In this document: positions 1 through 16,122 of the stretch, one piece after another
Layout: each line of letters begins with the position of its first letter
Position numbering within the stretch: the stretch's first letter is position 1
Notes under the pieces: generated by a model
What the model was told of the DNA's origin: nothing
The model's input: the letters and a program-made list of their open reading frames with translations, nothing else
Databases searched by the model: none
Made by a program: the position numbers and the translations under genes
From: a virus
Reading direction: 5' to 3' (one strand)
Length of the DNA stretch: 16,122 nt
Virus record (IMG/VR): IMGVR_UViG_3300029237_000047

Positions 1-148
1 CCCACGTCGACATAAAATAAAACGATATTTAGAACATTTCCCCATTCAGTTTGCGGGGTGAACTAAAAATAGTGAACGCGAATAAAAATATTTCAGAAAT
101 ACGCTTGACATTTCTATAAGCGTGTGCTATTATATAATTACAGAAAGG
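1..148 (+). repeat. Left inverted terminal repeat (ITR-L)
   Basis: Positions 1-148 equal the reverse complement of 15975-16122. Positions 1-56 are identical. Mismatches lie at 57, 59, 60, 74, 78, 96, 118 and 121. Similarity ends after cagaaagg (141-148). Confidence 0.95.
105..133 (+). promoter_or_regulatory. Left-end early promoter inside ITR-L
   Basis: TTGACA (105-110), a 17-nt spacer ending in TGc (125-127), then TATTAT (128-133). This is an extended -10 sigma-A type promoter. The first gene starts at 183. Confidence 0.75.
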
Positions 149-3013: not shown

Positions 3014-3765
3014 GCGTTTATACGATAAGTAAGAGCCACCTCAGCCGTACTCCATCCCTCAGCACTATTAGGACGGCCAATACCAATACGCTCATCTTTG
3101 AAGTCACTCTCCGTATAAGTTACTGACGCAGAACCCTGTTGAATTGTAGCGCTACGTGTTAAACCTTGCACATTGACAGTTCCAAAAACGTTTGACACAA
3201 CCATTTTTATCAAAGTCATGTTATCAAGATTTTTATAAAAAAATGTGGCTGTTCCGGTGTTTGGTCTAGATGCTCCGACCGCTATAACTTTAAACACAAC
3301 CTCAGTAGCTGGTTTCGGCGCGCTTTCCAGTGCCGTCACTCTTCGATCAAGCTCTGCGATCGTCGTTTTGTTCCCATCCGCCGTCTGCTTTGCTTTTGTC
3401 GCGTTCGCACTAGCCGCATTCGCAGCGTTTACAACATCGGTTGCCGCCGTCTGTGCGGCGGTTGCTTTCTGCTCTGCTCTGTTCGCAGCTTCCTGTGCTG
3501 CTGTCACGTCTCCGGTCATGCCGTCCGCAGTTTCTTTCAGCTGCGCCACCTGTTTTTTGACATCCTCGTGAACGGCTTTCAGATCTGCCTGAGCGCTCTT
3601 TACAGTTTCCACATCATTAACTGCTTCCTCAGCTGTCTGACTAGCAGTAAATAAAGCACCGTCAATGATCTTCATATCGTTATTATAGTCGCCCAGAAAA
3701 GTTGGCTTGTCTGTCCCGATAAACTCGGATAATTTAAAATTGGTTGTTTTGTTTGTGCTACTCAT
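3010..3765 (-). CDS. Tail fiber or receptor-binding protein (N-anchor, Ala-rich coiled coil, C-terminal beta knob), 251 aa
   Basis: The N-terminal motif is FLGDYNNDMKIIDGAL. A long A/Q/T-rich helical stretch ends at RRVTALESA, followed by about 100 aa of beta-type sequence. SD is AAAGGAGG. Confidence 0.6.
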   Translation of the reverse strand: MSSTNKTTNFKLSEFIGTDKPTFLGDYNNDMKIIDGALFTASQTAEEAVNDVETVKSAQADLKAVHEDVKKQVAQLKETADGMTGDVTAAQEAANRAEQKATAAQTAATDVVNAANAASANATKAKQTADGNKTTIAELDRRVTALESAPKPATEVVFKVIAVGASRPNTGTATFFYKNLDNMTLIKMVVSNVFGTVNVQGLTRSATIQQGSASVTYTESDFKDERIGIGRPNSAEGWSTAEVALTYRINA

Positions 3766-3778
3766 GGTTTACCTCCTT

Positions 3779-4225
3779 TTAAGCGTTTTCTAACGCAGAA
3801 ATTCTTTCCTGCAATGTTGTGATCTTTCCAGCGTTTTCACTGTTTGCATCGTTCGCAATTTTAACTGCTTCCTGTGCTGCGGTTACAAGGTCTTTAGAAT
3901 TGTCAATATCTGTGACCGCTTTTTCTGCTTTTGTTTCTGCACCGCTGGCAACCTGTGTTAAAACATTCAGTGCGGGCATTACAGCCAGTAATTTACCCTG
4001 CGATAACGTGATAGTATTTTTTAATGTTTCATTTTCTTCAGTCATTTTCGTGATCTCTGTCTGGACTGTTGTCATTTCATTTTTTACACCGGATGTTTTA
4101 CCTTTCAGCGATTGCAAGGCTGCATCAATCTTTTTGTTGTTTTCGTTCCAATCTCCCATGATGTCAACAGCATCTTTTTTCTGATACATTCCGAAATTGA
4201 AATACCTTGTGTGACGTGTAAACAT
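3779..4225 (-). CDS. Fiber-like coiled-coil protein lacking the distal knob (148 aa), paralog of 3010-3765
   Basis: It shares the N-anchor motif (IMGDWNENNKKIDAAL) and ends at ERISALENA. That is exactly where the paralog (RRVTALESA) continues into its knob. SD is AAGGAGG. Confidence 0.6.
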   Translation of the reverse strand: MFTRHTRYFNFGMYQKKDAVDIMGDWNENNKKIDAALQSLKGKTSGVKNEMTTVQTEITKMTEENETLKNTITLSQGKLLAVMPALNVLTQVASGAETKAEKAVTDIDNSKDLVTAAQEAVKIANDANSENAGKITTLQERISALENA

Positions 4226-5572: not shown

Positions 5573-6262
5573 TTAATAGATTTTTAAGAAAAGAGTGCGG
5601 GAAACTGTGTCCGAGAATTGCCCAACTACATCCATAAGCGTCTCCCGGTATTTTAAAATCAATTCCGCCTGCGGAACGTTGTATCCGCTTTCCTTATAAT
5701 TTTCTTCGTACACCTCTTTTCCGTTTGAAGATGTCGTTCCGTTCCCGCTCCCCTGATCTACTGTAATTGTAGTTGCATAATCCGCGTTTGTCAAGCTGTT
5801 TTCCGGTGTATCATCAAAAATATTTTTGTTGTTGCTTTCGCTTGTGCTTTTCCCACTTGCGGCTGTTTCTCTGTCGCCTGCGCGTGTGCTTTCCCGGCTG
5901 TAGCTCTTTAGTTTGTCCAGCTCCAATAAACTCGTTTCATAAAGTTTATTGTACACGGGCAGCCAGCGCGACACGTTCTGATTAAATTTCAGAATAAAAT
6001 ATTCCGTTGTTTCGTATTCAATTTCCCGCATCATATTGTCAACGCAAAACTGTTGGAAAAAAGCGTTTTTAAATTCTTCATTGAAAAAATTGTTTGTGTT
6101 ATACAGCATTTTAGACCGCGCTTTTTCGATTCTTTCCATAACGCTCATTTCATCTTCCAACCGGATAAACGCATATCGTTTTTCTTCCTCTGGATGCAGC
6201 GGGTTATTGTCCTGCGAATAATGATATATTATATTGCGTAGTGTTGTAGTGTGGTCACTCAT
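5573..6262 (-). CDS. Lower collar protein candidate (229 aa)
   Basis: It lies immediately downstream of the portal gene with an 8-nt overlap, the position of phi29 gp11. I recognise no sequence motif. Confidence 0.5.
   Translation of the reverse strand: MSDHTTTLRNIIYHYSQDNNPLHPEEEKRYAFIRLEDEMSVMERIEKARSKMLYNTNNFFNEEFKNAFFQQFCVDNMMREIEYETTEYFILKFNQNVSRWLPVYNKLYETSLLELDKLKSYSRESTRAGDRETAASGKSTSESNNKNIFDDTPENSLTNADYATTITVDQGSGNGTTSSNGKEVYEENYKESGYNVPQAELILKYRETLMDVVGQFSDTVSRTLFLKIY
5766..5794 (-). promoter_or_regulatory. Possible internal promoter within the lower-collar gene
   Basis: On the minus strand: TTGACA (5794-5789), 17 nt, then TACAAT (5771-5766). It lies about 200 nt upstream of the appendage gene start. 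It could be a chance match in AT-rich DNA. Confidence 0.25.
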
Positions 6263-7226
6263 TTTCGATAGTCACCTCCGGTTCATCCGTAATTTCGGCG
6301 CTGCCTTTTGAATCCGTGCTATCAATTCCTGCGATTTCCTGCGTACCCAGACTTAAACGGTTACAATTAGGATTAAAGTCTACACGGATTCCAGATAAAT
6401 CTGGGAATAGTCTTTTAATTTTCTTTATTGCTTCTCTACGCATAAACAACCCGCCGTCCCGCAGTGCAAGAATATGTTCTTCGTTGGCTTCCGCTTCGGA
6501 TTCCACCAGACGTTCCTTTTTGTAAATGTTAAGGTTGTTATAACCTAAACGCGTTAAAAACTCAGACCATATGCAGTTTTTTTCTTTTTCCAGCTGTTCA
6601 AGGATGCACGGAACGGAAAGGTCAAGAACCCCTTTTGTGTCCGTAGAAAAACCGTCTGTATCATCTACAAGAACAAACGGTTTCCCGTCCTCTGCTTCAT
6701 TGATTGCACGTTTCGCACTGTTTACGTTGTCCTTGTTTACAAATACTCCTTTCGGTTTCAGCTGCAATCGCGTGTTCACGTCTTTTGCCTTTTCAATCAT
6801 TGTAAACTTTTTAGCAAAGTAATAAATTTCCGGCATGAACGGTCGGAAAGTCTGATCGTTAAAAATAATAGCGCTGTCTTTTTCGGTCGCTTTGTGATGG
6901 TATCCGCTGGCTGTGTTGATATAGCGGGTTGTCGGTATGTTATAAATGTTAAAGCTGCCCGCTTTTGCACAAGGTAAACACAGATACCCCATAACATCAT
7001 CCTTAAAAAAGCAAACTGAGCCGTTAAAAATTAAAGCCTGTTCCAATGCGCGGGCGCTGACCGTATCTGGAAGTCCTGTCCATGTGTAACGATTGATTGC
7101 CAATAAATACAGCTGGCATACGAAATGATCGAACGTTATACCCTCATCGAATTTTCGAACGATCTTCCCATCATATCCGATTCCGCACAAGCCCAGCGGG
7201 TCGGATGAAAAACCTGTTCTTCCCAT
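6255..7226 (-). CDS. Portal / upper collar connector (phi29 gp10-like), 323 aa
   Basis: Patterns W.GLPDT....ALEQAL...GSV.FFKD and KKERLVESE..ANEE match my recollection of phi29 gp10 (WENLPPT...LEKSI..FGYVGFYKD; KKERMVTDEVSSNDE). Size and synteny agree. The C-terminus is acidic. Confidence 0.8.
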   Translation of the reverse strand: MGRTGFSSDPLGLCGIGYDGKIVRKFDEGITFDHFVCQLYLLAINRYTWTGLPDTVSARALEQALIFNGSVCFFKDDVMGYLCLPCAKAGSFNIYNIPTTRYINTASGYHHKATEKDSAIIFNDQTFRPFMPEIYYFAKKFTMIEKAKDVNTRLQLKPKGVFVNKDNVNSAKRAINEAEDGKPFVLVDDTDGFSTDTKGVLDLSVPCILEQLEKEKNCIWSEFLTRLGYNNLNIYKKERLVESEAEANEEHILALRDGGLFMRREAIKKIKRLFPDLSGIRVDFNPNCNRLSLGTQEIAGIDSTDSKGSAEITDEPEVTIENE

Positions 7227-7243: not shown

Positions 7244-8914
7244 TTACTTTTGATTGTTTCCGTATGTTCCCACATTGTTTTTGTCATGCCACAACGTAAA
7301 GCCGTTTATAAACATATTTCGTAATGGCTGCAAAAATTCGTTCGGTATGCTTCCATAAACATTTACATTATTACATTTAATGTAATTATAACGCGGTCTA
7401 CTGTTTAAGTTCGGTACACCAAAACGACTGACCTTATACCCGTAAACATCAAAAAACTGTTCAATCTTTTCTGCAAACTCCGGTTTTACTGTCCACCACC
7501 TGTACAAAATTTCCAGTTTCTTTGAAGCAATAAACGTTGCAAGTCCTCCACCGCTTGCACCTGTAAGGCTAACGTTTGTTTGCATCTGTCCAATGCGTTG
7601 TCTGTCCCTTTCGGAACTTTGCAATTCAGACCTTACATTTTTGTAAGCATCTATTCCGGTGGAAAGCACATTCAACGGGTCTCCGGTAAATACAGCTTGC
7701 GCCACATTTCCAACCGTGTCCCAGAAAATATTCGATCGGTTTTGTGAATGCACGAGAGTGTTTGTAGCTTCTGCCTGTGCGGTCTGTAAAGGGTATGTGT
7801 TATTCTGTACCGGGAAGCACGGAAAACCGCTTATATTGTTTGCGTTTAAGAGGAAATCCGATTCCGCACCACAATAGTTTTCCGTGTATAGATATAAGTT
7901 TGGAGCTGGAATAAGCGTGCCAACTACTTTCACAGACGGTATGCCGTCTGGTAAAAATTCTGGCTTTAATACGGTTCTCGCTCCATTCGGTAGCACTACC
8001 TCAATAAAAGAAAATTGTGACGTGTACATTTTTTTATTTTTATATGCCGGGAATTTCGATAGCCAGGCTGCAAGCACACCACCCACGGGAATTACAGACG
8101 GCGCAGAACTATCTGCAATTACACCAACCGAAAATCCCATAGCTGACTGCTCCACGGTTACTGCTCCACCTATATTATAGGGTGTCACGGCGTAAATTGC
8201 CAATATGCTTTGTGATACCCATGGAAACGCGGAAAGTGAATCCATTACAGATACAATGGAACTAGTTCCACGCCTAGGACTTACTAAGTACGCTCTAGCA
8301 CCGGACGGCAAACCAGCATACATTCCGCCTTTCGCTCCTGTGACTTTTGGCTCTTCCAGTGTGCCGGGGTCGGCTAGAATGTCTATTGCGGAAATAATAA
8401 CGAATTGATAATCTGTATCCTCATCCAGTATGTCAAGATCAAAGGTTTCTTCATGTGCGATAACATAATCCCCAACATCAACAGGCTCTTGTACTGTGTT
8501 TGTTTTAAAATCATCATTCGCAACATGCTCCCGGCTGATGTCACAGTCTCTTATAACCATGTCAAACAAAAACGTCTGGTATACGTCTATTTCAAAATTC
8601 AATAACGACGTTTCCGGGTTGATATAAATAACCTGTGTTACAAAAGCATAATACCATTTCCCGCTTGCCTGATTTTTAAAACATAAGTAACACGCGTTAC
8701 CTATTTCCTCCGCGTTTACCGGGACTTTTACACCACGATGCTCCCGGATGTATTTAAAATCATTAAAAATTCGAATTGCTTTTGAACGAAAATAATTATA
8801 TTGTTCGTTCTTATCTGCAAAAGATAGCTGCCGAACCTGTGAAGCGTCAAGAGGAACGTCTGCGCATATCATCAATTCATTCGATTGCATTGCGTATACT
8901 GTTTCTAGTGCCAC
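7244..8914 (-). CDS. Tail knob / distal tube protein (phi29 gp9-like), 556 aa, GTG start
   Basis: KWYYAFVT, FEIDVYQTFLFD and REHV near the N-terminus, and FFDVYGYKVSRFGVPNLNSR...NGFTLWH near the C-terminus, parallel my recollection of phi29 gp9 (KWFYAFVT, FEIDVLQTWMFD, REHV, FFHKYGYKINRVKKPNLRTR, NGITLWH). The GTG start at 8914 is preceded by AAAGGAGG at 7-nt spacing. Confidence 0.85.
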   Translation of the reverse strand: MALETVYAMQSNELMICADVPLDASQVRQLSFADKNEQYNYFRSKAIRIFNDFKYIREHRGVKVPVNAEEIGNACYLCFKNQASGKWYYAFVTQVIYINPETSLLNFEIDVYQTFLFDMVIRDCDISREHVANDDFKTNTVQEPVDVGDYVIAHEETFDLDILDEDTDYQFVIISAIDILADPGTLEEPKVTGAKGGMYAGLPSGARAYLVSPRRGTSSIVSVMDSLSAFPWVSQSILAIYAVTPYNIGGAVTVEQSAMGFSVGVIADSSAPSVIPVGGVLAAWLSKFPAYKNKKMYTSQFSFIEVVLPNGARTVLKPEFLPDGIPSVKVVGTLIPAPNLYLYTENYCGAESDFLLNANNISGFPCFPVQNNTYPLQTAQAEATNTLVHSQNRSNIFWDTVGNVAQAVFTGDPLNVLSTGIDAYKNVRSELQSSERDRQRIGQMQTNVSLTGASGGGLATFIASKKLEILYRWWTVKPEFAEKIEQFFDVYGYKVSRFGVPNLNSRPRYNYIKCNNVNVYGSIPNEFLQPLRNMFINGFTLWHDKNNVGTYGNNQK

Positions 8915-8968: not shown

Positions 8969-10255
8969 TTAGCCTGTGATTGTCACAGCTTTTGTTGCCT
9001 GCACGTTTGTCTGTCCTGCTACAACTGCTTTAAGCGTTAATGTTTTAGCCGTTTCGTTGGGGCTTACTTCAATTGTTGCACTCTTGCTATCGCTTGCAAC
9101 AATCCTTGTGCTGGTAGCATTCGCACCCTCTAAGGAAAAAATCACTCCGCCATTAACAGGGGTGGTAGCTGCTGTGTATTTACTCTGTGCGCCTTTTGCA
9201 ATTGACTCCGCGCCTGTGATCGTCACAGCTGTGTAGCTCTGAACCTGATCTGTGGTAAGTGCAACTGCATTGTGAAATGGGCTGGTAAAGTAGATCTGCC
9301 ATACGTGTAACCAGTAATTCCAGTACAGCTTTTCACCGTTAAAAAACTCTGATGTTTCAAATAGCTGATCGTAGATATTTAGCCACTCGTCATCCGCGAC
9401 AATTGCAACAATTTCCGGATGATTAGGAATTTCCGGGATGACTGTGATTCTTCCCAGAATCTGCGCTTCGTCCATATGGAACGCATAGGCTAGTGCCTGT
9501 ACCGAGGTTACGGCATCCGCTTTAGGTGTAATAAATACACGCTGGCTTTCTCTGGCTGTCGTATTTAAAACACCTGCTGCGTTGTAGTTTTCAGACGGGA
9601 ATAACAGGTTATTTGAAACTACACGCATTGTTGTAAGAAAATCTTTTGCGGTCTGCTCGTCAATCGGGTCTGTCACATGTACGAGCTTGACAAAACCGTT
9701 ATCAAGAGCGGACGCGATTGCACCCATCGCATACAGCATTTCGGAAACTTCGTTTCCGGTGTACATACTGTCAATCACGCGATCAACAAAGTTCCCCAGC
9801 CCCTGCTCACTGTAAAATGCACTCCGCAGCATTTCACGGTTCACGGTCTTTTTAAAAAACTCCTCACGGTTTCTGTTCATAAAAGCAACTGCAATATCAG
9901 GTTTTTCCTGCTTTAACATTGCCCACGGGTCAGTATCCGAGCAGAACGAGTGAGCAGCTGCGATCTTTACCCACACGCTTTCAATGGTTTCCCCGTACTC
10001 AAGCATGCCCCTTTTCGCGAACGCGAACGGAGAAGTAAAATACATTTTGTCGATCTTCTGTAACGCCCAGACATTTACAAGCTGGTTCATGAAACGGTTC
10101 ATGATCGGCTGGTATTGCATCATGACCGAACCGAATTCTTTGATGTTTGTATTTGTAACTTCGGGAAGTAAACCCTCCCATTCTGTACCTTTTAAGCTGT
10201 CTTTAAAGCTCTGTAATGCTAAAGGTACATTTTTTAAAACTCCTTTTACTGCCAT
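8969..10255 (-). CDS. Major capsid protein (phi29 gp8-like) with a C-terminal Ig-like (Big_2-type) domain, 428 aa
   Basis: LYWNYWLHVWQIYFTSPFHNAVAL parallels my recollection of phi29 gp8 ([24 protein letters not shown]). The C-terminal 85 aa (VTITGAESIAKGAQSKYTA...TLKAVVAGQ...ATKAVTITG) look like a bacterial Ig-like fold. SD is AAAGGAGG. Confidence 0.9.
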   Translation of the reverse strand: MAVKGVLKNVPLALQSFKDSLKGTEWEGLLPEVTNTNIKEFGSVMMQYQPIMNRFMNQLVNVWALQKIDKMYFTSPFAFAKRGMLEYGETIESVWVKIAAAHSFCSDTDPWAMLKQEKPDIAVAFMNRNREEFFKKTVNREMLRSAFYSEQGLGNFVDRVIDSMYTGNEVSEMLYAMGAIASALDNGFVKLVHVTDPIDEQTAKDFLTTMRVVSNNLLFPSENYNAAGVLNTTARESQRVFITPKADAVTSVQALAYAFHMDEAQILGRITVIPEIPNHPEIVAIVADDEWLNIYDQLFETSEFFNGEKLYWNYWLHVWQIYFTSPFHNAVALTTDQVQSYTAVTITGAESIAKGAQSKYTAATTPVNGGVIFSLEGANATSTRIVASDSKSATIEVSPNETAKTLTLKAVVAGQTNVQATKAVTITG

Positions 10256-10269
10256 TTTTTACCTCCTTT

Positions 10270-10527
10270 TTACAGATCAAGGAAATCTTCTGTTTTGATT
10301 TCCTCTTTTTCCTCCACTTCTTCTTTGCTCTTTTCTTTTTCCGAACCGGAAAGAAAAGCGTCTGCATACTGTTTTTTCACATCTGCCACCTCTGTTTCCA
10401 GACGGTCGTTCTCGTCTGCAATCTCCGCAATCAAATTTAAAATTGCGGATTCATCCAGCGCACCCTCTTCCGGTGCATCAATCCGCGCAATCATGCGCGC
10501 TTTAGAAATCAGATCTTCTCTTTTCAT
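10270..10527 (-). CDS. Scaffolding protein (phi29 gp7-like), 85 aa from the internal ATG
   Basis: It is a small acidic helical protein directly upstream of the capsid gene. The C-terminus EIKTEDFLDL resembles the gp7 end ITIEDLEAK. I place the start at ATG 10527 after GGGAGAAAGGA. The ORF-track start at 10602 is a TTG inside the structured leader. Confidence 0.75.
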   Translation of the reverse strand: MKREDLISKARMIARIDAPEEGALDESAILNLIAEIADENDRLETEVADVKKQYADAFLSGSEKEKSKEEVEEKEEIKTEDFLDL

Positions 10528-10562
10528 TTTTTCCTTTCTCCCGTGTGCGGTTTTTATAAGTA

Positions 10563-10652
10563 AGGGAAAACACGCGCATAATCCGATGCGCCACACAGAC
10601 AAGCCGAATTTACACGGGGATTTCCTGTCTATGCTGTAAGTTCTCCCTCTAT
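10563..10652 (-). ncRNA. Structured RNA at the 5' end of the late transcript: three-way junction with complementary bulge and loop (pRNA-like candidate or regulatory leader)
   Basis: Hand folding of the minus strand gives three helices. P1 is 10648-10640 with 10571-10563 (9 bp). P2 is 10633-10624 with 10603-10594 (10 bp), then a bulge AAAUCC and CCG/CGG. P3 is 10591-10586 with 10579-10574 (6 bp) and loop CGGAUU. Bulge AAUCC is complementary to loop GGAUU. The element begins about 4 nt after the predicted transcription start. Confidence 0.45.
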
Positions 10653-10658
10653 GGTTTT

Positions 10659-10687
10659 ATTATAGCTTCCTTTTGTACCGATGTCAA
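10659..10687 (-). promoter_or_regulatory. Late promoter, perfect sigma-A consensus
   Basis: On the minus strand: TTGACA (10687-10682), exactly 17 nt, then TATAAT (10664-10659). The ATPase TGA stop codon (10686-10684) lies inside the -35 hexamer. Confidence 0.85.
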
Positions 10688-11733
10688 CCCCTAATTCCTA
10701 AAAAATCCATACCTATATTCTTACATTCCTGCGATTCAAAACGAAAATTCCCGGCATTAAATTGCTTTCTGCACATCGACACTTGCGCAGATATCGCACC
10801 TGTCAAGCATGTGTTTTCGTCATGGTCTTTTGTGGATATTGCGAACAATCTGTGAAAATTTCTGTCCGCTTTTAACGATATATAATATCTTCCATTTTGT
10901 AGCATCCACAGCCCATAAAAAATACCGTTATGCTTTATTGTCATTAAATACCTTGCACCCGCAAGATTTTGTTTTGCAATAAATTGTACATTATCAAGCA
11001 AAAAGATATTGTCAATGCTATAATTAAAATAATCAGAATCGGAAAAAGCGCGATAAAATCCACTTTGTTGCTTTTCCTCTGCTACATATCTATTTCTGTA
11101 AACCTCCATCACCCAGCCATGCCCGCGCATAAAATGAATACCGGATTGCCAACGTTTATGAATCCCCAATGCGACAAAATACGGGTTCAAAAGGGATACC
11201 ATGTTACTAACTAAAAAATAAGTAAGTTTTCGCGTTAATTGTTCAAAACCTCTTCCAACTGCGTCATTGATTGCAAAAAACTTCGTGATCTCATCTGTGC
11301 AATAGTCGCCCGTTTCACTTTGGAACTCGTCTAGAAAAATATTGTCGGCATCGTTGAAAAACGTAGATATTCGCTTTACTTTATCGACCATACTTAGCGC
11401 AATCACATATCCGCAAGATATTTCAAAAGCTTCTGTTTTTATGAAAACTTCTGCAAACTTGCCAGAACCGCTTGACACAGAATATAAATCAGTGTTCGGA
11501 AATTTATTTTTTACATCCGCCCAAAATGCGGGAATGTAACTATTTAATTCATCTTTTTTTCGAACTAGACAGATAAATTTTTTACTTTTATGCAAAAATT
11601 CATTTATTAAATATTCTTTAACGGCAAAAGATTTTCCTCCACCCTTTGAACCTGTTATAATAAAAATATCAGGCGTGTTTCCGTCAAGGTCTTTTGTTTT
11701 TAATATATTGTCTAACCTGTAATGCTTCTCCAT
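10684..11733 (-). CDS. DNA encapsidation ATPase (phi29 gp16-like), 349 aa from ATG 11733
   Basis: Walker A is FIITGSKGGGKS and Walker B is IFLDEF. LVSNMVSLLNPYF and GNFRFESQECKNI parallel my recollection of gp16 (CLSNAVSVVNPYF; GYLRFDNQVIRNI). ATG 11733 follows GGAAAGGGG. The track start at 11748 is a TTG. Confidence 0.9.
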   Translation of the reverse strand: MEKHYRLDNILKTKDLDGNTPDIFIITGSKGGGKSFAVKEYLINEFLHKSKKFICLVRKKDELNSYIPAFWADVKNKFPNTDLYSVSSGSGKFAEVFIKTEAFEISCGYVIALSMVDKVKRISTFFNDADNIFLDEFQSETGDYCTDEITKFFAINDAVGRGFEQLTRKLTYFLVSNMVSLLNPYFVALGIHKRWQSGIHFMRGHGWVMEVYRNRYVAEEKQQSGFYRAFSDSDYFNYSIDNIFLLDNVQFIAKQNLAGARYLMTIKHNGIFYGLWMLQNGRYYISLKADRNFHRLFAISTKDHDENTCLTGAISAQVSMCRKQFNAGNFRFESQECKNIGMDFLGIRG

Positions 11734-11748
11734 GCTACCCCTTTCCAA

Positions 11749-11790: not shown

Positions 11791-12126
11791 TCAAACAAGA
11801 ACAAGCGTTAAAAATTCATTTTTATTATTCGACTTGCGATATTCCGCCCTCAATGTGAGCGGATTGTCTGCGGTCGGCGCTCCAACAAACTGTTCAAGCG
11901 TCTGGATGCAATCTGCGACTGTAGGAGAGAGGGTTGTAATGCAGCGCCCGTCCTCAAGTACAAACCCAGTGCATACACATGCGTCTCCGGTAGCTTTTCT
12001 AGTGGTTTCCCACTGCGCCACCCCTACAACTGTCATATCTTCCCCTACGTGATCTGTTAAACCCTCGCTGTTCTGGGAAAGGCTGTACAGCTGCTTTTTG
12101 TCGGTTACTGTGTTAATTAAACTCAT
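11791..12126 (-). CDS. Putative single-stranded DNA-binding protein (phi29 p5-like), 111 aa
   Basis: The start at ATG 12126 follows AAGGAG. VGVAQW...TGDA...EDGRCITTLSPTVADCIQTLEQFV and the C-terminal FLTLVLV parallel my recollection of phi29 p5 (AIAQY...YGDA...ADGSLYSAISKTVAEAASDLIDLV; FFSLQLSL). The similarity was judged by eye only. Confidence 0.5.
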   Translation of the reverse strand: MSLINTVTDKKQLYSLSQNSEGLTDHVGEDMTVVGVAQWETTRKATGDACVCTGFVLEDGRCITTLSPTVADCIQTLEQFVGAPTADNPLTLRAEYRKSNNKNEFLTLVLV

Positions 12127-12142
12127 GGTAAAATCTCCTTTT

Positions 12143-12442
12143 TTATTCTGCTTTTTCTGCTTCGTCAACTGTTACAACTTCGGAATACTTCAAAAAATCT
12201 TCGACGCTTAAACGTCTCAGCTCTTCTCTGTATTCAGTGTTCACACAAAACAACCCTTTTTCATCAGGGTATGCTTTTATGATCTCCCTTGTGATTGCCG
12301 TGTTAGAACTTACTCTAACTGGAACAATGATGTCAGGAAAGGCTGTTAACTGTCCATCTGCAAACTGTGCTACCTTAATAACGGTAGTAGTCACAGTACG
12401 TGTGAAAAAACGTGTTCTTGCGTCTCCGTCTCCTTTTCTCAT
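12143..12442 (-). CDS. Putative histone-like dsDNA-binding protein (phi29 p6-like), 99 aa
   Basis: TRTVTTTVIKVAQFADG, then LSVEDFLKYSEVVTV and an acidic tail DEAEKAE, parallel my recollection of phi29 p6 (EITKTTVNVAKMVMVDG; LPVEKFLEVATV followed by an acidic tail). SD is AAAGGAG. Judged by eye only. Confidence 0.45.
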   Translation of the reverse strand: MRKGDGDARTRFFTRTVTTTVIKVAQFADGQLTAFPDIIVPVRVSSNTAITREIIKAYPDEKGLFCVNTEYREELRRLSVEDFLKYSEVVTVDEAEKAE

Positions 12443-12487: not shown

Positions 12488-12516
12488 ATAGTATCACAAA
12501 CTACGTAAAACGTCAA
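12488..12516 (-). promoter_or_regulatory. Internal promoter for the p6-like and p5-like genes
   Basis: On the minus strand: TTGACG (12516-12511), a 17-nt spacer ending in TGa, then TACTAT (12493-12488). An overlapping TATAAT (12490-12485) would need a 20-nt spacer. The polymerase TGA stop (12515-12513) lies inside the -35. Confidence 0.55.
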
Positions 12517-14363
12517 CACCTTTTTGCACGTAAAGTGTAAAAATCTTCAACCAACACCATCCCGCCGCTTATATATTTTGGTTTTAATTTACCTCCCACT
12601 TTTAAGCCGATCTTAAAATCCGTTATCGGGTGCGTTGCCAAAAACAGATTTTTTGATTTTTCCGGCATCCCCGCACACTTTATTTCCCAGTGTCCCGATA
12701 CCTTTTTGCCGTCCTCTTTTTGCACAAACTCAGCATAGGTCTTTTGTCTTATAAATATAGCGCTAGACCAATCACTTTCCCGCTTCCAGTGCAATAGCTC
12801 TGTAGCGTGTTCTTTTATCATTTTTACTGGCTTCCCATCGTCGAGCATATGAATAGAATCTGTGTCACTGTATACAAAGTTTTCATAATTCGCCTGCGCA
12901 TGCGTTATAGTAAAATATCGCGCGTATGCTGTCACTGCTGCCCCTGCTGCAATATATAGCGTGTCTTTTTCATGCTCCGGGTGCAATTCGAATCCTATGG
13001 AATCTGTTTCAGGGTCGATGAACGGCTCACGGTAAGAACTGTTATCATTTATAGCAAGCCGTCCGTATAGATTATTCAGAAACAATTTTGCTTCCGTGCG
13101 TTCTCCCTTGTCTTTTGTAGTCATTTTAATTTTCATGTAGTGGTTTATATAAGTGTCAAACAGACCGATTGCACCATGAAAATAACAACCATCTAAAATT
13201 TCTAAGTCATATACTTCATAGTGTTCCAATAAAAGGATATAGTCAGTCATAAAAAGGGTTAGTTCCGGTTTTGCTTCTTCTGTTTGTCCCTCTTTGTTTG
13301 TAAAATATCTATAATATTTCCCGCGGTAATAGATATCAGATGTTTCTAGCCATTGAGTAGAGTTATACCGATAATCTCCTTTAATTTGTACTGTGGGAAG
13401 AAACCCGTCTTTCAGCTTAAAACGGCAGCGCACCCGCACATAGAACGGATAAACGCTTGTCTCTAAGCATTTATAGGGTATTTCTTTTTCAAAAAATATT
13501 GGCTTGCCTGTTGGATAATAATTACCGCTTTTACTGTGCATAACACTAGGGTATAGAGAATTAACATCAAAAGTCATGCCATTCTGCGTGACGTGTTTTC
13601 TTTGTTTGTATTTGTAATAGCAATAACCGCCTTTATAAGCTTTACGGATATATTCATCAACATTATCGCTCCCACGCTCATATTTTATTAACGATATGTC
13701 TTTTAAGTTCGGAAAAGCTGCTTTAAAGTCCATAGCATCAAATTTGTTTTTGAACTCGTCCATGCAGCACGAACCTATAGTCAATTTGTCGTGTCCGTTT
13801 TTTATCATAACTTCCAGTGCTTCCTTTAGCACATAGATGTCATTGATAATATAAGCATATTCTTCCGGTGTTATTTCACAGTTTGCGTGTCGCAGTCCTA
13901 TATATTCCATTTCCAGTTTTCTATGCTGCGTATTAAATGCAGAGCCAATTTGAGCCAATGTCATCGGCATAAGTTTAACACTGTCCCTAAACTCAATCAC
14001 TGTATCAAATTTTGGTTTAACTGTTACGGTATACCATTTATTTGTATCGGATATCAGCGCCTTGAACTCTTTAGCGTTCATATCTTTATTTCGTGCATTG
14101 TTCCACGTATACCCGTTCTTCAATAACCAGTACACAATAAAAGCCCCGTCAAAACGCAGATTGTGAAAATAGCATAAAACATTTTTGTTCAAATTAAAAA
14201 TATCGTTCAAAAAATCTTCTATGTTGCCGCGCAAGTGTGGTTGCTCTGTAAATAATTCTATCCATGCAGCGCTCCAAACTTCGGTTGATGTCTGCCCGGC
14301 ATATACAGTTGTTTCAAAATCTGCCGCTATTATAACGGGTTTTTTCGTTGATTTTTTTGACAT
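12513..14363 (-). CDS. Protein-primed family-B DNA polymerase (phi29 gp2-like), 616 aa
   Basis: Exo I is AADFETT, Exo II is YFHNLRFDG and Exo III is YIINDIYVLKEA. Motif A is DVNSLYPSVM, motif B is KLFLNNLYGRLA and motif C is VYSDTDSIH. The KxY motif is IRQKTYAEF. Confidence 0.95.
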   Translation of the reverse strand: MSKKSTKKPVIIAADFETTVYAGQTSTEVWSAAWIELFTEQPHLRGNIEDFLNDIFNLNKNVLCYFHNLRFDGAFIVYWLLKNGYTWNNARNKDMNAKEFKALISDTNKWYTVTVKPKFDTVIEFRDSVKLMPMTLAQIGSAFNTQHRKLEMEYIGLRHANCEITPEEYAYIINDIYVLKEALEVMIKNGHDKLTIGSCCMDEFKNKFDAMDFKAAFPNLKDISLIKYERGSDNVDEYIRKAYKGGYCYYKYKQRKHVTQNGMTFDVNSLYPSVMHSKSGNYYPTGKPIFFEKEIPYKCLETSVYPFYVRVRCRFKLKDGFLPTVQIKGDYRYNSTQWLETSDIYYRGKYYRYFTNKEGQTEEAKPELTLFMTDYILLLEHYEVYDLEILDGCYFHGAIGLFDTYINHYMKIKMTTKDKGERTEAKLFLNNLYGRLAINDNSSYREPFIDPETDSIGFELHPEHEKDTLYIAAGAAVTAYARYFTITHAQANYENFVYSDTDSIHMLDDGKPVKMIKEHATELLHWKRESDWSSAIFIRQKTYAEFVQKEDGKKVSGHWEIKCAGMPEKSKNLFLATHPITDFKIGLKVGGKLKPKYISGGMVLVEDFYTLRAKRC

Positions 14364-14398
14364 TGTGAAACCTCTCAGAATGTTTCACGTGAAACATT
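14364..14398. promoter_or_regulatory. Perfect 20-bp palindrome plus a third half-site at the terminal-protein/polymerase junction
   Basis: AATGTTTCAC|GTGAAACATT spans 14379-14398, overlapping the terminal protein (TP) stop codon. An extra GTGAAAC sits at 14365-14371, next to the polymerase ATG. On the mRNA two mutually exclusive hairpins share GUGAAAC, and one of them encloses the polymerase SD GAGAGG. Confidence 0.6.
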
Positions 14399-15511: not shown

Positions 15512-15758
15512 TTTTCTCCTCCTTTTTATAACCATAGTAAACATAATAGCAATATTGGTTTGACCTATAATACGGAAATTTTGCTACTGTGTAATAATCG
15601 CAGTCATTGTCAATAAACAATGACATTGCTTTTCTAAAGTTACCGCGCAAACCTTTTAACGAATCCGGTACTTTGATGAAATCACTTTCTACGCCGCACC
15701 CCTTTACAGAGCAATAACCTCTACTACTGCCTGTTTCAAATGAAACTATTTTCTTCAT
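15504..15758 (-). CDS. Early protein of unknown function, Tyr/Cys-rich (84 aa)
   Basis: SD and start read GGAGGACAAGAAAATG. There are 11 Tyr, 10 of them between residues 55 and 77, and 4 Cys. No motif recognised. Confidence 0.7.
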   Translation of the reverse strand: MKKIVSFETGSSRGYCSVKGCGVESDFIKVPDSLKGLRGNFRKAMSLFIDNDCDYYTVAKFPYYRSNQYCYYVYYGYKKEEKNE

Positions 15759-15771
15759 TTTCTTGTCCTCC

Positions 15772-15957
15772 TTATTTAAACTTTGCTATTTTCTGCGTGA
15801 CTATGTCTATCGCTGCATTGACTTTATCCAACTCACACTCATAACGATCGCGGTCAAACTGTGTTATAACTCCTCCCTTAAAATCAAGCGCTGCCATATA
15901 ATAACGCTGCATAGCTTTCAACCATTCCAATTCTAATACTAGCAGTTCTTCTAACAT
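15772..15957 (-). CDS. Early protein of unknown function (61 aa from ATG 15957)
   Basis: GGAGGACAAGAAAATG gives the start at 15957 (MLEELLVLELEW). The track start at 15999 would lie inside the promoter, upstream of the predicted transcription start. Confidence 0.7.
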   Translation of the reverse strand: MLEELLVLELEWLKAMQRYYMAALDFKGGVITQFDRDRYECELDKVNAAIDIVTQKIAKFK

Positions 15958-15974
15958 TTTCTTGTCCTCCTTTT

Positions 15975-16122
15975 CCTTTCTGTAATTATATAATAGCACA
16001 CACTAATAGAAATGTCAAGCGTATTTTTGAAATATTTTTATTCGTGTTTACTATTTTTAGTTTGCGCCGCAAACTGAATGGGGAAATGTTCTAAATATCG
16101 TTTTATTTTATGTCGACGTGGG
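15975..16122 (-). repeat. Right inverted terminal repeat (ITR-R)
   Basis: Reverse complement of 1-148 with 8 mismatches. The terminal sequence on this strand is 5'-CCCACGTCGACAT. Confidence 0.95.
15990..16018 (-). promoter_or_regulatory. Right-end early promoter inside ITR-R (mirror of 105-133)
   Basis: On the minus strand: TTGACA (16018-16013), a 17-nt spacer ending in TGc, then TATTAT (15995-15990). Both hexamers are identical to the left copy, while the spacer differs at 2 positions. Confidence 0.75.

Follow-up and report, generated by a model that had tools for sequence, protein, structure and literature searches.

The gap between the DNA-packaging ATPase gene and the next open reading frame (ORF) of a phi29-like phage genome from the human gut probably encodes a pRNA-like packaging RNA, the counterpart of phi29 pRNA in a phi29-like lineage of phages that infect gut Clostridia. 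A sequence-only reading of this DNA had proposed a divergent, relocated pRNA at this site, and the proposal is supported by the predicted fold, by covariation, by a family of RNAs linked to gp16 and by a topology like that of phi29 pRNA, with no match to the Rfam family RF00044.

Genome Setting and Promoter

The stretch of DNA that was analyzed (hereafter the window; 16,122 nucleotides, IMG/VR record IMGVR_UViG_3300029237_000047) is a complete linear phi29-like genome of 16 kb from a human-gut phage, its completeness being indicated by inverted terminal repeats of 151 nt, 94% complementary, at both ends (1-151 and 15972-16122). The minus strand carries nearly all genes, and Pfam profiles (PF05894, PF05352, PF25622, PF03175, and PF17427) describe a phi29-like gene set (Table 1). 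In a phage collection the nearest relatives of the ATPase belong to uncultured human-faecal phages and Clostridium symbiosum phages, at about 34-35% identity, and identity to the Bacillus phage proteins is about 26%. The contig of one relative of the window, L184, bears the label human gut metagenome. The 85-aa ORF that follows the gap had been read as a scaffold gene; its position before the capsid gene is that of phi29 gp7, but searches of Pfam and PHROG gave zero matches for it, and it is called scaffold-like here by position.

The genome ends have features of their own. Each terminal repeat contains a TTGACA-17-TATTAT promoter that has a TG extension and points inward (105-133, plus strand; 16018-15990, minus strand). 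An inverted repeat of 24 nt, 92% complementary, lies just inside the two ends, at 468-491 and 15751-15774, and spans a Shine-Dalgarno sequence and start codon, TAAGGAGGTCAAGAAAATGAAAAA, which suggests that small terminal ORFs have a duplicated start of translation.

A perfect consensus promoter, TTGACA-17-TATAAT at 10687-10659 on the minus strand, precedes the RNA. It agrees in every coordinate with the sequence-only reading, is the sole 12/12 promoter match within the window, and has the ATPase stop codon TGA (10686-10684) inside its -35 hexamer. Both hexamers are unchanged in 15 relatives while the spacer between them varies at many positions. From the promoter spacing, the RNA is predicted to start near 10652. 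The next ORF begins with an ATG at 10527, and the RNA core ends 28 nt before this start codon. A scan for terminators between the RNA and the next ORF found none, the one weak terminator-like call being P3 together with GUGUUUU, and the RNA is therefore expected to be read through into the next ORF, a discrete RNA not being predicted from the sequence. The terminator-like call consists of the P3 hairpin (10574-10591) followed by GUGUUUUCCC (10563-10573); as a stop after P3 would leave P1 without its 3' strand, the site is perhaps a weak pause or attenuation point. Two caveats attached to the original proposal, that P1 is short and that no terminator follows, thus both hold.

Table 1. Features of the predicted RNA gene and the main phi29-like genes of the window
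Feature	Position	Strand	Basis or remark
-35 hexamer TTGACA	10682-10687	minus	invariant in 15/15 relatives
-10 hexamer TATAAT	10659-10664	minus	17-nt spacer; invariant in 15/15 relatives
pRNA-like RNA core, about 97 nt	10556-10652	minus	predicted start to end of invariant CUUACUUAU tail
P1 / A-helix 5' strand GAGGGAGAAC	10640-10649	minus	pairs with 10571-10562; MFE
P1 / A-helix 3' strand GUUUUCCCUU	10562-10571	minus	MFE
P2 / C-helix 5' strand	10624-10634	minus	pairs with 10603-10593; covariation
P2 / C-helix 3' strand	10593-10603	minus	covariation
5' bulge AAAUCC	10618-10623	minus	equivalent of phi29 CE loop; AAUCC complements P3 loop
E hairpin: CCG, loop UGUAAAUU, CGG	10604-10617	minus	MFE; stem invariant in relatives
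P3 / D hairpin: GCGCAU, loop CGGAUU, AUGCGC	10574-10591	minus	loop GGAUU (10584-10580) complements bulge
Rest of invariant 3' tail	10556-10561	minus	CUUACUUAU is 10564-10556; invariant in 15/15 relatives
Shine-Dalgarno region GGGAGAAAGGA of next ORF	10532-10542	minus	unpaired in predicted structures
85-aa ORF, scaffold-like by position before capsid gene	10270-10527	minus	position as phi29 gp7
gp16-type DNA encapsidation ATPase	10684-11748	minus	PF05894, E 4.8e-33, residues 30-348; phrog_2150 terminase, E 2e-95
gp10-type connector	6255-7226	minus	PF05352, E 2e-39
gp9 tail knob	7244-8914		
phi29-type major capsid protein	8969-10255		
phi29-type SSB	11791-12168		
Protein-primed type-B DNA polymerase	12513-14363		

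Predicted Fold of the RNA

Folding with RNAfold gives the same three-way junction as the minimum free energy (MFE) structure and as the centroid, and reproduces helices P1, P2, and P3 at the coordinates first proposed for them. All of the pairs proposed earlier are present; the MFE structure extends P1 and P2 by one G.U pair each (10649/10562 and 10634/10593) and gives junction strands of 5, 1, and 2 nt in place of 6, 2, and 2 nt. The region 10528-10655 folds at -39.8 kcal/mol (z = -3.06 against shuffled sequence) and the 97-nt core (10556-10652) at -37.0 kcal/mol (z = -4.56); none of 200 shuffles equalled the core in stability, so that the comparison with shuffled controls suggested as a check comes out in favor of the fold. 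Pair probability inside the junction averages 0.97. The antisense strand reaches only -26.0 kcal/mol and loses the junction, in keeping with the several G.U pairs, which are present on the transcribed strand alone.

The proposed complementarity of bulge and loop is confirmed in the sequence: AAUCC of the 5' bulge (10622-10618) is perfectly complementary to GGAUU of the P3 loop (10584-10580), and the duplex has an energy of -3.7 kcal/mol, compared with -2.1 for that of phi29. Judging from its letters, the tail at 10556-10561 could lengthen P1, beyond a 3-nt bulge, by three A-U pairs; these pairs are absent from the MFE structure. Scans with Rfam and with the covariance models described below gave no second pRNA candidate elsewhere in the window.

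Covariation Among Close Relatives

Close relatives of the window are represented by 15 IMG/VR contigs in which the ATPase is 90-99% identical and the gap 84-100% identical. The ATPase cluster P0001 by itself contains 373 sequences. In their trimmed alignment (about 13-14 distinct sequences) 97.6% of cells are paired, compared with only 34-56% in slid controls in which partners were moved by 1-3 columns. Five pairs have changed on both sides, the covariation score is reached by 0 of 500 shuffles, and the covariation of the helices and of the AAUCC/GGAUU pair that had been put forward as a check is thereby found. Three of the double-sided changes fall in P2 (C-G to U-A, A-U to G-C, and C-G to A-U) and two in the bulge/loop helix, which is AAUCC/GGAUU in one group of relatives and AUCCC/GGGAU in the other; the D loop of this second clade is AGGGAU, and its 5 bp with AUCCC are preserved. 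The bulge/loop change may be a single evolutionary event, in which case it is modest evidence when taken alone. P1 is paired in 99% of cells and has one-sided changes, G.U to G-C and C-G to U.G in L013.

A covariance model of the 15 close relatives (R1) found nothing credible in distant loci, and its best hit (768-892 of L038, minus strand) was rejected as false, being antisense in the polymerase gene and having a positive folding z. Pattern scans of viral and metagenome contigs with the 16-nt motif GAGGGAGAAYTTACAG returned mostly chance matches, L199 being the only new variant among the matches listed.

A Family of RNAs Beside gp16

An alignment of ATPase homologs led to 80 loci, in 73 of which the ATPase is 34-38% identical to that of the window. 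The DNA 3' of the ATPase stop codon falls into 16 clusters, between which BLAST similarity is undetectable. Each cluster except the L042 group nevertheless has, adjoining the ATPase gene, an element of 100-120 nt with one shared design, consisting of a long A helix formed from both ends, a C helix, a 5' bulge, a short E hairpin, and a D hairpin; in the L042 group the MFE scan gave no such fold. Altogether, an RNA of this design lies beside gp16 in at least 16 clusters. The RNAs were delimited by hand, and for each the MFE structure was accepted, or else the best suboptimal one lying within 5 kcal/mol; extracting the three-way junctions automatically from local MFE structures gave too much noise and was dropped. 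Folding z is negative for 17 of 17 representatives, ranging from -0.6 to -7.9. The A helix has 13-23 pairs in the related clusters and is shortest, at 10 pairs, in the window clade. Phages with a counterpart RNA have ATPases 30-40% identical to that of the window and include two cultured ones, Clostridium phages CS229P1 (OP172772, RNA after position 10527) and HM2 (LT600745, RNA after the ATPase gene), in whose database records the RNA stretch is unannotated. The host of CS229P1 is Clostridium symbiosum DA229.

Complementarity of bulge and D arm recurs in most clusters, through sequences that vary from one cluster to the next: GUAGUC/GACUAC (bulge/D arm) in HM2, ACUCA/UGAGU in L073, UAGCA/UGCUA in L074, CUGUA/UACAG in L063, UGGGA/UCCCA in L054, and UUCC/GGAA in L084. 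Across 18 RNAs the longest Watson-Crick run averages 4.17 nt between a bulge and its own D arm and 3.01 nt between a bulge and non-cognate D arms, and when partners were permuted the observed total was reached in 0 of 100,000 permutations. The whole D arm was used so that the choice of D fold would not bias the test. In four of the 18 RNAs the bulge and D arm share a run of just 3 contiguous pairs.

Covariance models connect the clusters with one another. Model R2, built from the L040 cluster only (23 sequences) and run without filters, picks out, at E 0.001-0.016, the elements that follow the ATPase gene in seven other clusters. Within the window its top match is full length and syntenic, at 10552-10654 on the minus strand, with a weak score of 17.3 bits (E 0.19). 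In a model-guided alignment of 11 clusters 90% of cells are paired and 38 of 39 pairs have changed on both sides, compared with 29-50% of cells in slid controls, figures that are inflated because the alignment was fitted to the structure. Model R3, made from this alignment, scores the window element at 49.4 bits as a member of its training set and also finds clusters outside that set (L095, E 4e-9; L050, 0.025; L088, 0.1). At E <= 0.01 it matches 56 loci, with one match per locus that always adjoins the ATPase gene. The window clade and the relatives found with R3 have in common the architecture, the synteny with gp16, and the complementarity of bulge and D arm. In four more distant cultured phi29-like phages (Eggerthella LE1-1, Clostridium CI461P1, Enterococcus CUB-FM, and Bifidobacterium BadAztec1) the ATPase gene is followed by no gap and R3 finds nothing in the 1.2-kb flanks, and adjacency of the RNA to gp16 is thus a feature of one lineage.

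Two matches stand somewhat apart. In L049, of the L042 cluster, R3 matches 3678-3794 (minus strand; E 0.001) on the strand opposite the ATPase gene and converging on it. Upstream of the ATPase gene of L074, 2350-2471 gives a weak match to the Rfam RT-2 RNA (RF03077; 27.6 bits, compared with a gathering score of 40), probably by chance.

Three gene layouts occur in the family. In most clusters the RNA begins with GGUAUCU right after the ATPase stop codon, ends with AGAUAUA and is followed by a strong terminator; in CS229P1, which has this layout, the neighboring genes converge on the RNA. In the L095 group a TTGACA-17-TATACT promoter (11/12) lies right after the ATPase stop codon, and a hairpin with a T run, identified by eye in L104, follows the RNA; as judged from these signals, the arrangement is that of a stand-alone RNA gene. 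In the third layout (the window clade and the L038, L050, and L054 clusters) a consensus promoter lies across the ATPase stop codon and transcription is expected to continue into a small ORF and then the capsid gene. The A helix is followed by a U-rich tract in L038, L054, and L050, but not in the window clade.

The GGUAUCU and AGAUAUA termini at the base of the A helix are common to the RNAs of L039, L040, L062, L063, L072, L073, L074, L084, and L111, which come from clusters otherwise unrelated in sequence and have no visible promoter in front of them. These shared termini suggest that the RNA is co-transcribed with the ATPase gene and has a conserved site for processing or protein binding. 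A perfect palindrome, TTTCACGTGAAA, occurs at 14383-14394 of the window, between a terminal-protein-like ORF and the polymerase gene. Its longer form, TGTTTCACGTGAAACA, is found again in distant relatives, close to the pRNA-like element and the terminators there (immediately 3' of the ATPase stop codon in L063, about 150 nt past the RNA in loci of the L040 cluster, and at 5590-5706 in L084). The palindrome may serve these phages as a common operator or as a binding site for some other protein.

Comparison With phi29 pRNA

For comparison the pRNA of phi29 (NC_011048, 201-320, minus strand) was folded with the same tool, which gave a folding z of -2.2. It and the window element have the same order of elements, namely A helix, C helix, 5' bulge, E hairpin, and D hairpin. 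Both are encoded by phi29-like protein-primed podophages with a gp16 ATPase and a gp10 connector, and both have a strong sigma-A-type promoter, which in phi29 is A1. Several dimensions are close: the C helix has 11 pairs in the window and 9 in phi29, the D stem 6 in both, the bulge 6 nt compared with 9 nt, and the D loop 6 nt compared with 5 nt. The bulge/D-loop pair, AAUCC/GGAUU in the window and AACC/GGUU in phi29, has the same polarity and a similar sequence. Experiments have shown that in phi29 this pairing takes place between molecules.

The two RNAs differ in other respects. The A helix, which is needed in phi29 for docking of the ATPase, has 24 pairs there, whereas that of the window has 10, plus at most 3 weak A-U pairs, and is not a long helix. 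The junction strands in the MFE structures are 5, 1, and 2 nt in the window and 1, 3, and 0 nt in phi29. The gene lies mid-genome in the window, in the gap between the ATPase and scaffold-like genes, whereas that of phi29 lies near the left end. With no terminator between them, the window RNA is expected to be fused to the transcript of the structural genes. The hosts are gut Clostridia for the window family and Bacillus for phi29. The phi29 connector starts MARKRSN, and its basic cluster is used for pRNA binding; the connector of the window starts MGRTGF..., without a basic cluster of the RKR type.

RNAs of the RF00044 type are known from the Bacillus phages phi29, PZA, M2/Nf, B103, SF5, and GA-1. 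The Rfam pRNA model, whose use on this DNA had been suggested together with the original proposal, found no match in the window: RF00044 (Phage_pRNA) gave nothing at its gathering threshold (100 bits) or at E up to 10. Nor did it match any of 11 related loci at E up to 10, and the positive control, phi29, scored 145 bits. In the opposite direction, R3 did not find the pRNA region in the phi29 genome, and homology to pRNA is therefore argued from architecture and context only. By sequence and structure model, the window element belongs to an RNA family separate from, and outside, the curated pRNA family. A precedent may exist in Streptococcus phage Cp-1, for which a putative pRNA was derived from predicted secondary structure (Martin et al., 1996, as cited in PMC6266182) and is undetected by covariance models of Bacillus pRNA (PMC6266182). 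Like the window element, it is a pRNA proposed outside the Bacillus phages that Bacillus pRNA models miss. Its RefSeq record has no pRNA annotation, and R3 found nothing convincing in the Cp-1 genome.

What Is the Role of the RNA?

In the window the element forms the predicted start of a transcript that continues into structural genes, so could it simply act in cis, as a 5' leader that stabilizes the scaffold and capsid mRNA or tunes its translation, with no role as a free RNA? The lack of a terminator before the next ORF, the short distance from the end of the element to the start codon, and the recurrence of this layout in the L038, L050, and L054 clusters would all fit such a leader. The Shine-Dalgarno sequence, however, is unpaired in the MFE structure and in the centroid of the full leader. 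The sequence-only reading had itself offered a route to translational control, through an alternative helix of CCCGUGU with ACACGGG beside the Shine-Dalgarno sequence, but this idea does not survive: the helix carries an energy penalty of 13 kcal/mol, its Boltzmann probability is close to zero, and it is broken without compensating change in L014 and L011. In most clusters, moreover, the RNA follows the ATPase gene and precedes a terminator, the same strand carries no gene beyond it that could be led, and a leader leaves unexplained why bulge and D loop stay complementary with sequences specific to each cluster. A leader function of this kind is thus improbable.

Pairing within one molecule cannot be told from pairing between molecules by sequence, and the bulge and loop could instead form an intramolecular pseudoknot in a structured RNA with a role other than packaging, such as protection of the 3' end of the ATPase mRNA against exonucleases or a decoy for host defence. 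The many clusters in which the RNA has the position of a 3' UTR of the ATPase mRNA, just before a terminator, are compatible with this. Yet the arrangement and lengths match phi29 pRNA closely, above all in the C helix and D stem, the strict linkage to gp16 in phi29-like genomes points to packaging, and the promoter that the RNA has to itself in some clusters is a poor fit to 3' UTR protection; a non-packaging role appears rather unlikely. That the fold arose by chance in a spacer that happens to contain a promoter is scarcely credible: the fold of one sequence is weak evidence alone, with phi29 pRNA itself at only z = -2.2, but covariation, conservation across the family and the partner-permutation test all speak against chance.

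A packaging RNA, the reading preferred here, would act much as pRNA does in phi29. By analogy with that phage, the bulge of one RNA would pair with the D loop of the next, and several copies would form a ring at the prohead's connector vertex, for which the gp10-type connector is the expected docking site. The A helices would point outward and dock the gp16-type ATPase, the expected protein partner of the RNA, which would then pump the terminal-protein-linked genome into the head. In the window clade the RNA is expected at the 5' end of the mRNA for the scaffold-like and capsid genes, and a free RNA would therefore need 3' processing or partial termination near 10556. The short A helix and the fusion to the transcript of the structural genes are unexplained features of the window clade.

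Implications for Phage Packaging

According to reviews (PMC5066667; PMC11476376), pRNA is confined to phi29 and its relatives among the Bacillus phages, and the survey in PMC11476376 takes in CS229P1 and HM2. A search of the literature, incomplete in coverage so that an earlier description is possible, found no pRNA described in gut or Clostridium phi29-like phages. On balance, we favor the view that RNA-dependent packaging is general in the large and abundant lineage of phi29-like phages of human-gut Clostridia. The pRNA gene would travel in this lineage with the ATPase gene, as the 3' end of the ATPase mRNA, as a stand-alone gene or as the leader of the scaffold and capsid transcript, and the window clade would have a minimal pRNA with a 10-bp A helix, cut from the mRNA or acting while attached to it.

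Why a DNA-packaging motor needs an RNA is an open question in the field. A second family, unrelated in sequence and of the same architecture, provides many natural variants, two of them in cultured phages, and opens a comparative question of what is kept (the three-way junction, the bulge/loop pairing, and the linkage to gp16) and what is free to vary (the length of the A helix, the junction strands, and the position of the gene). It offers new test systems, and many modules that combine a three-way junction with kissing loops for RNA nanotechnology. The annotation of many gut phage genomes, now blank at the RNA stretch, would be corrected, and RNA-assisted packaging, if the reading is true, may reach well beyond the Bacillus phages.
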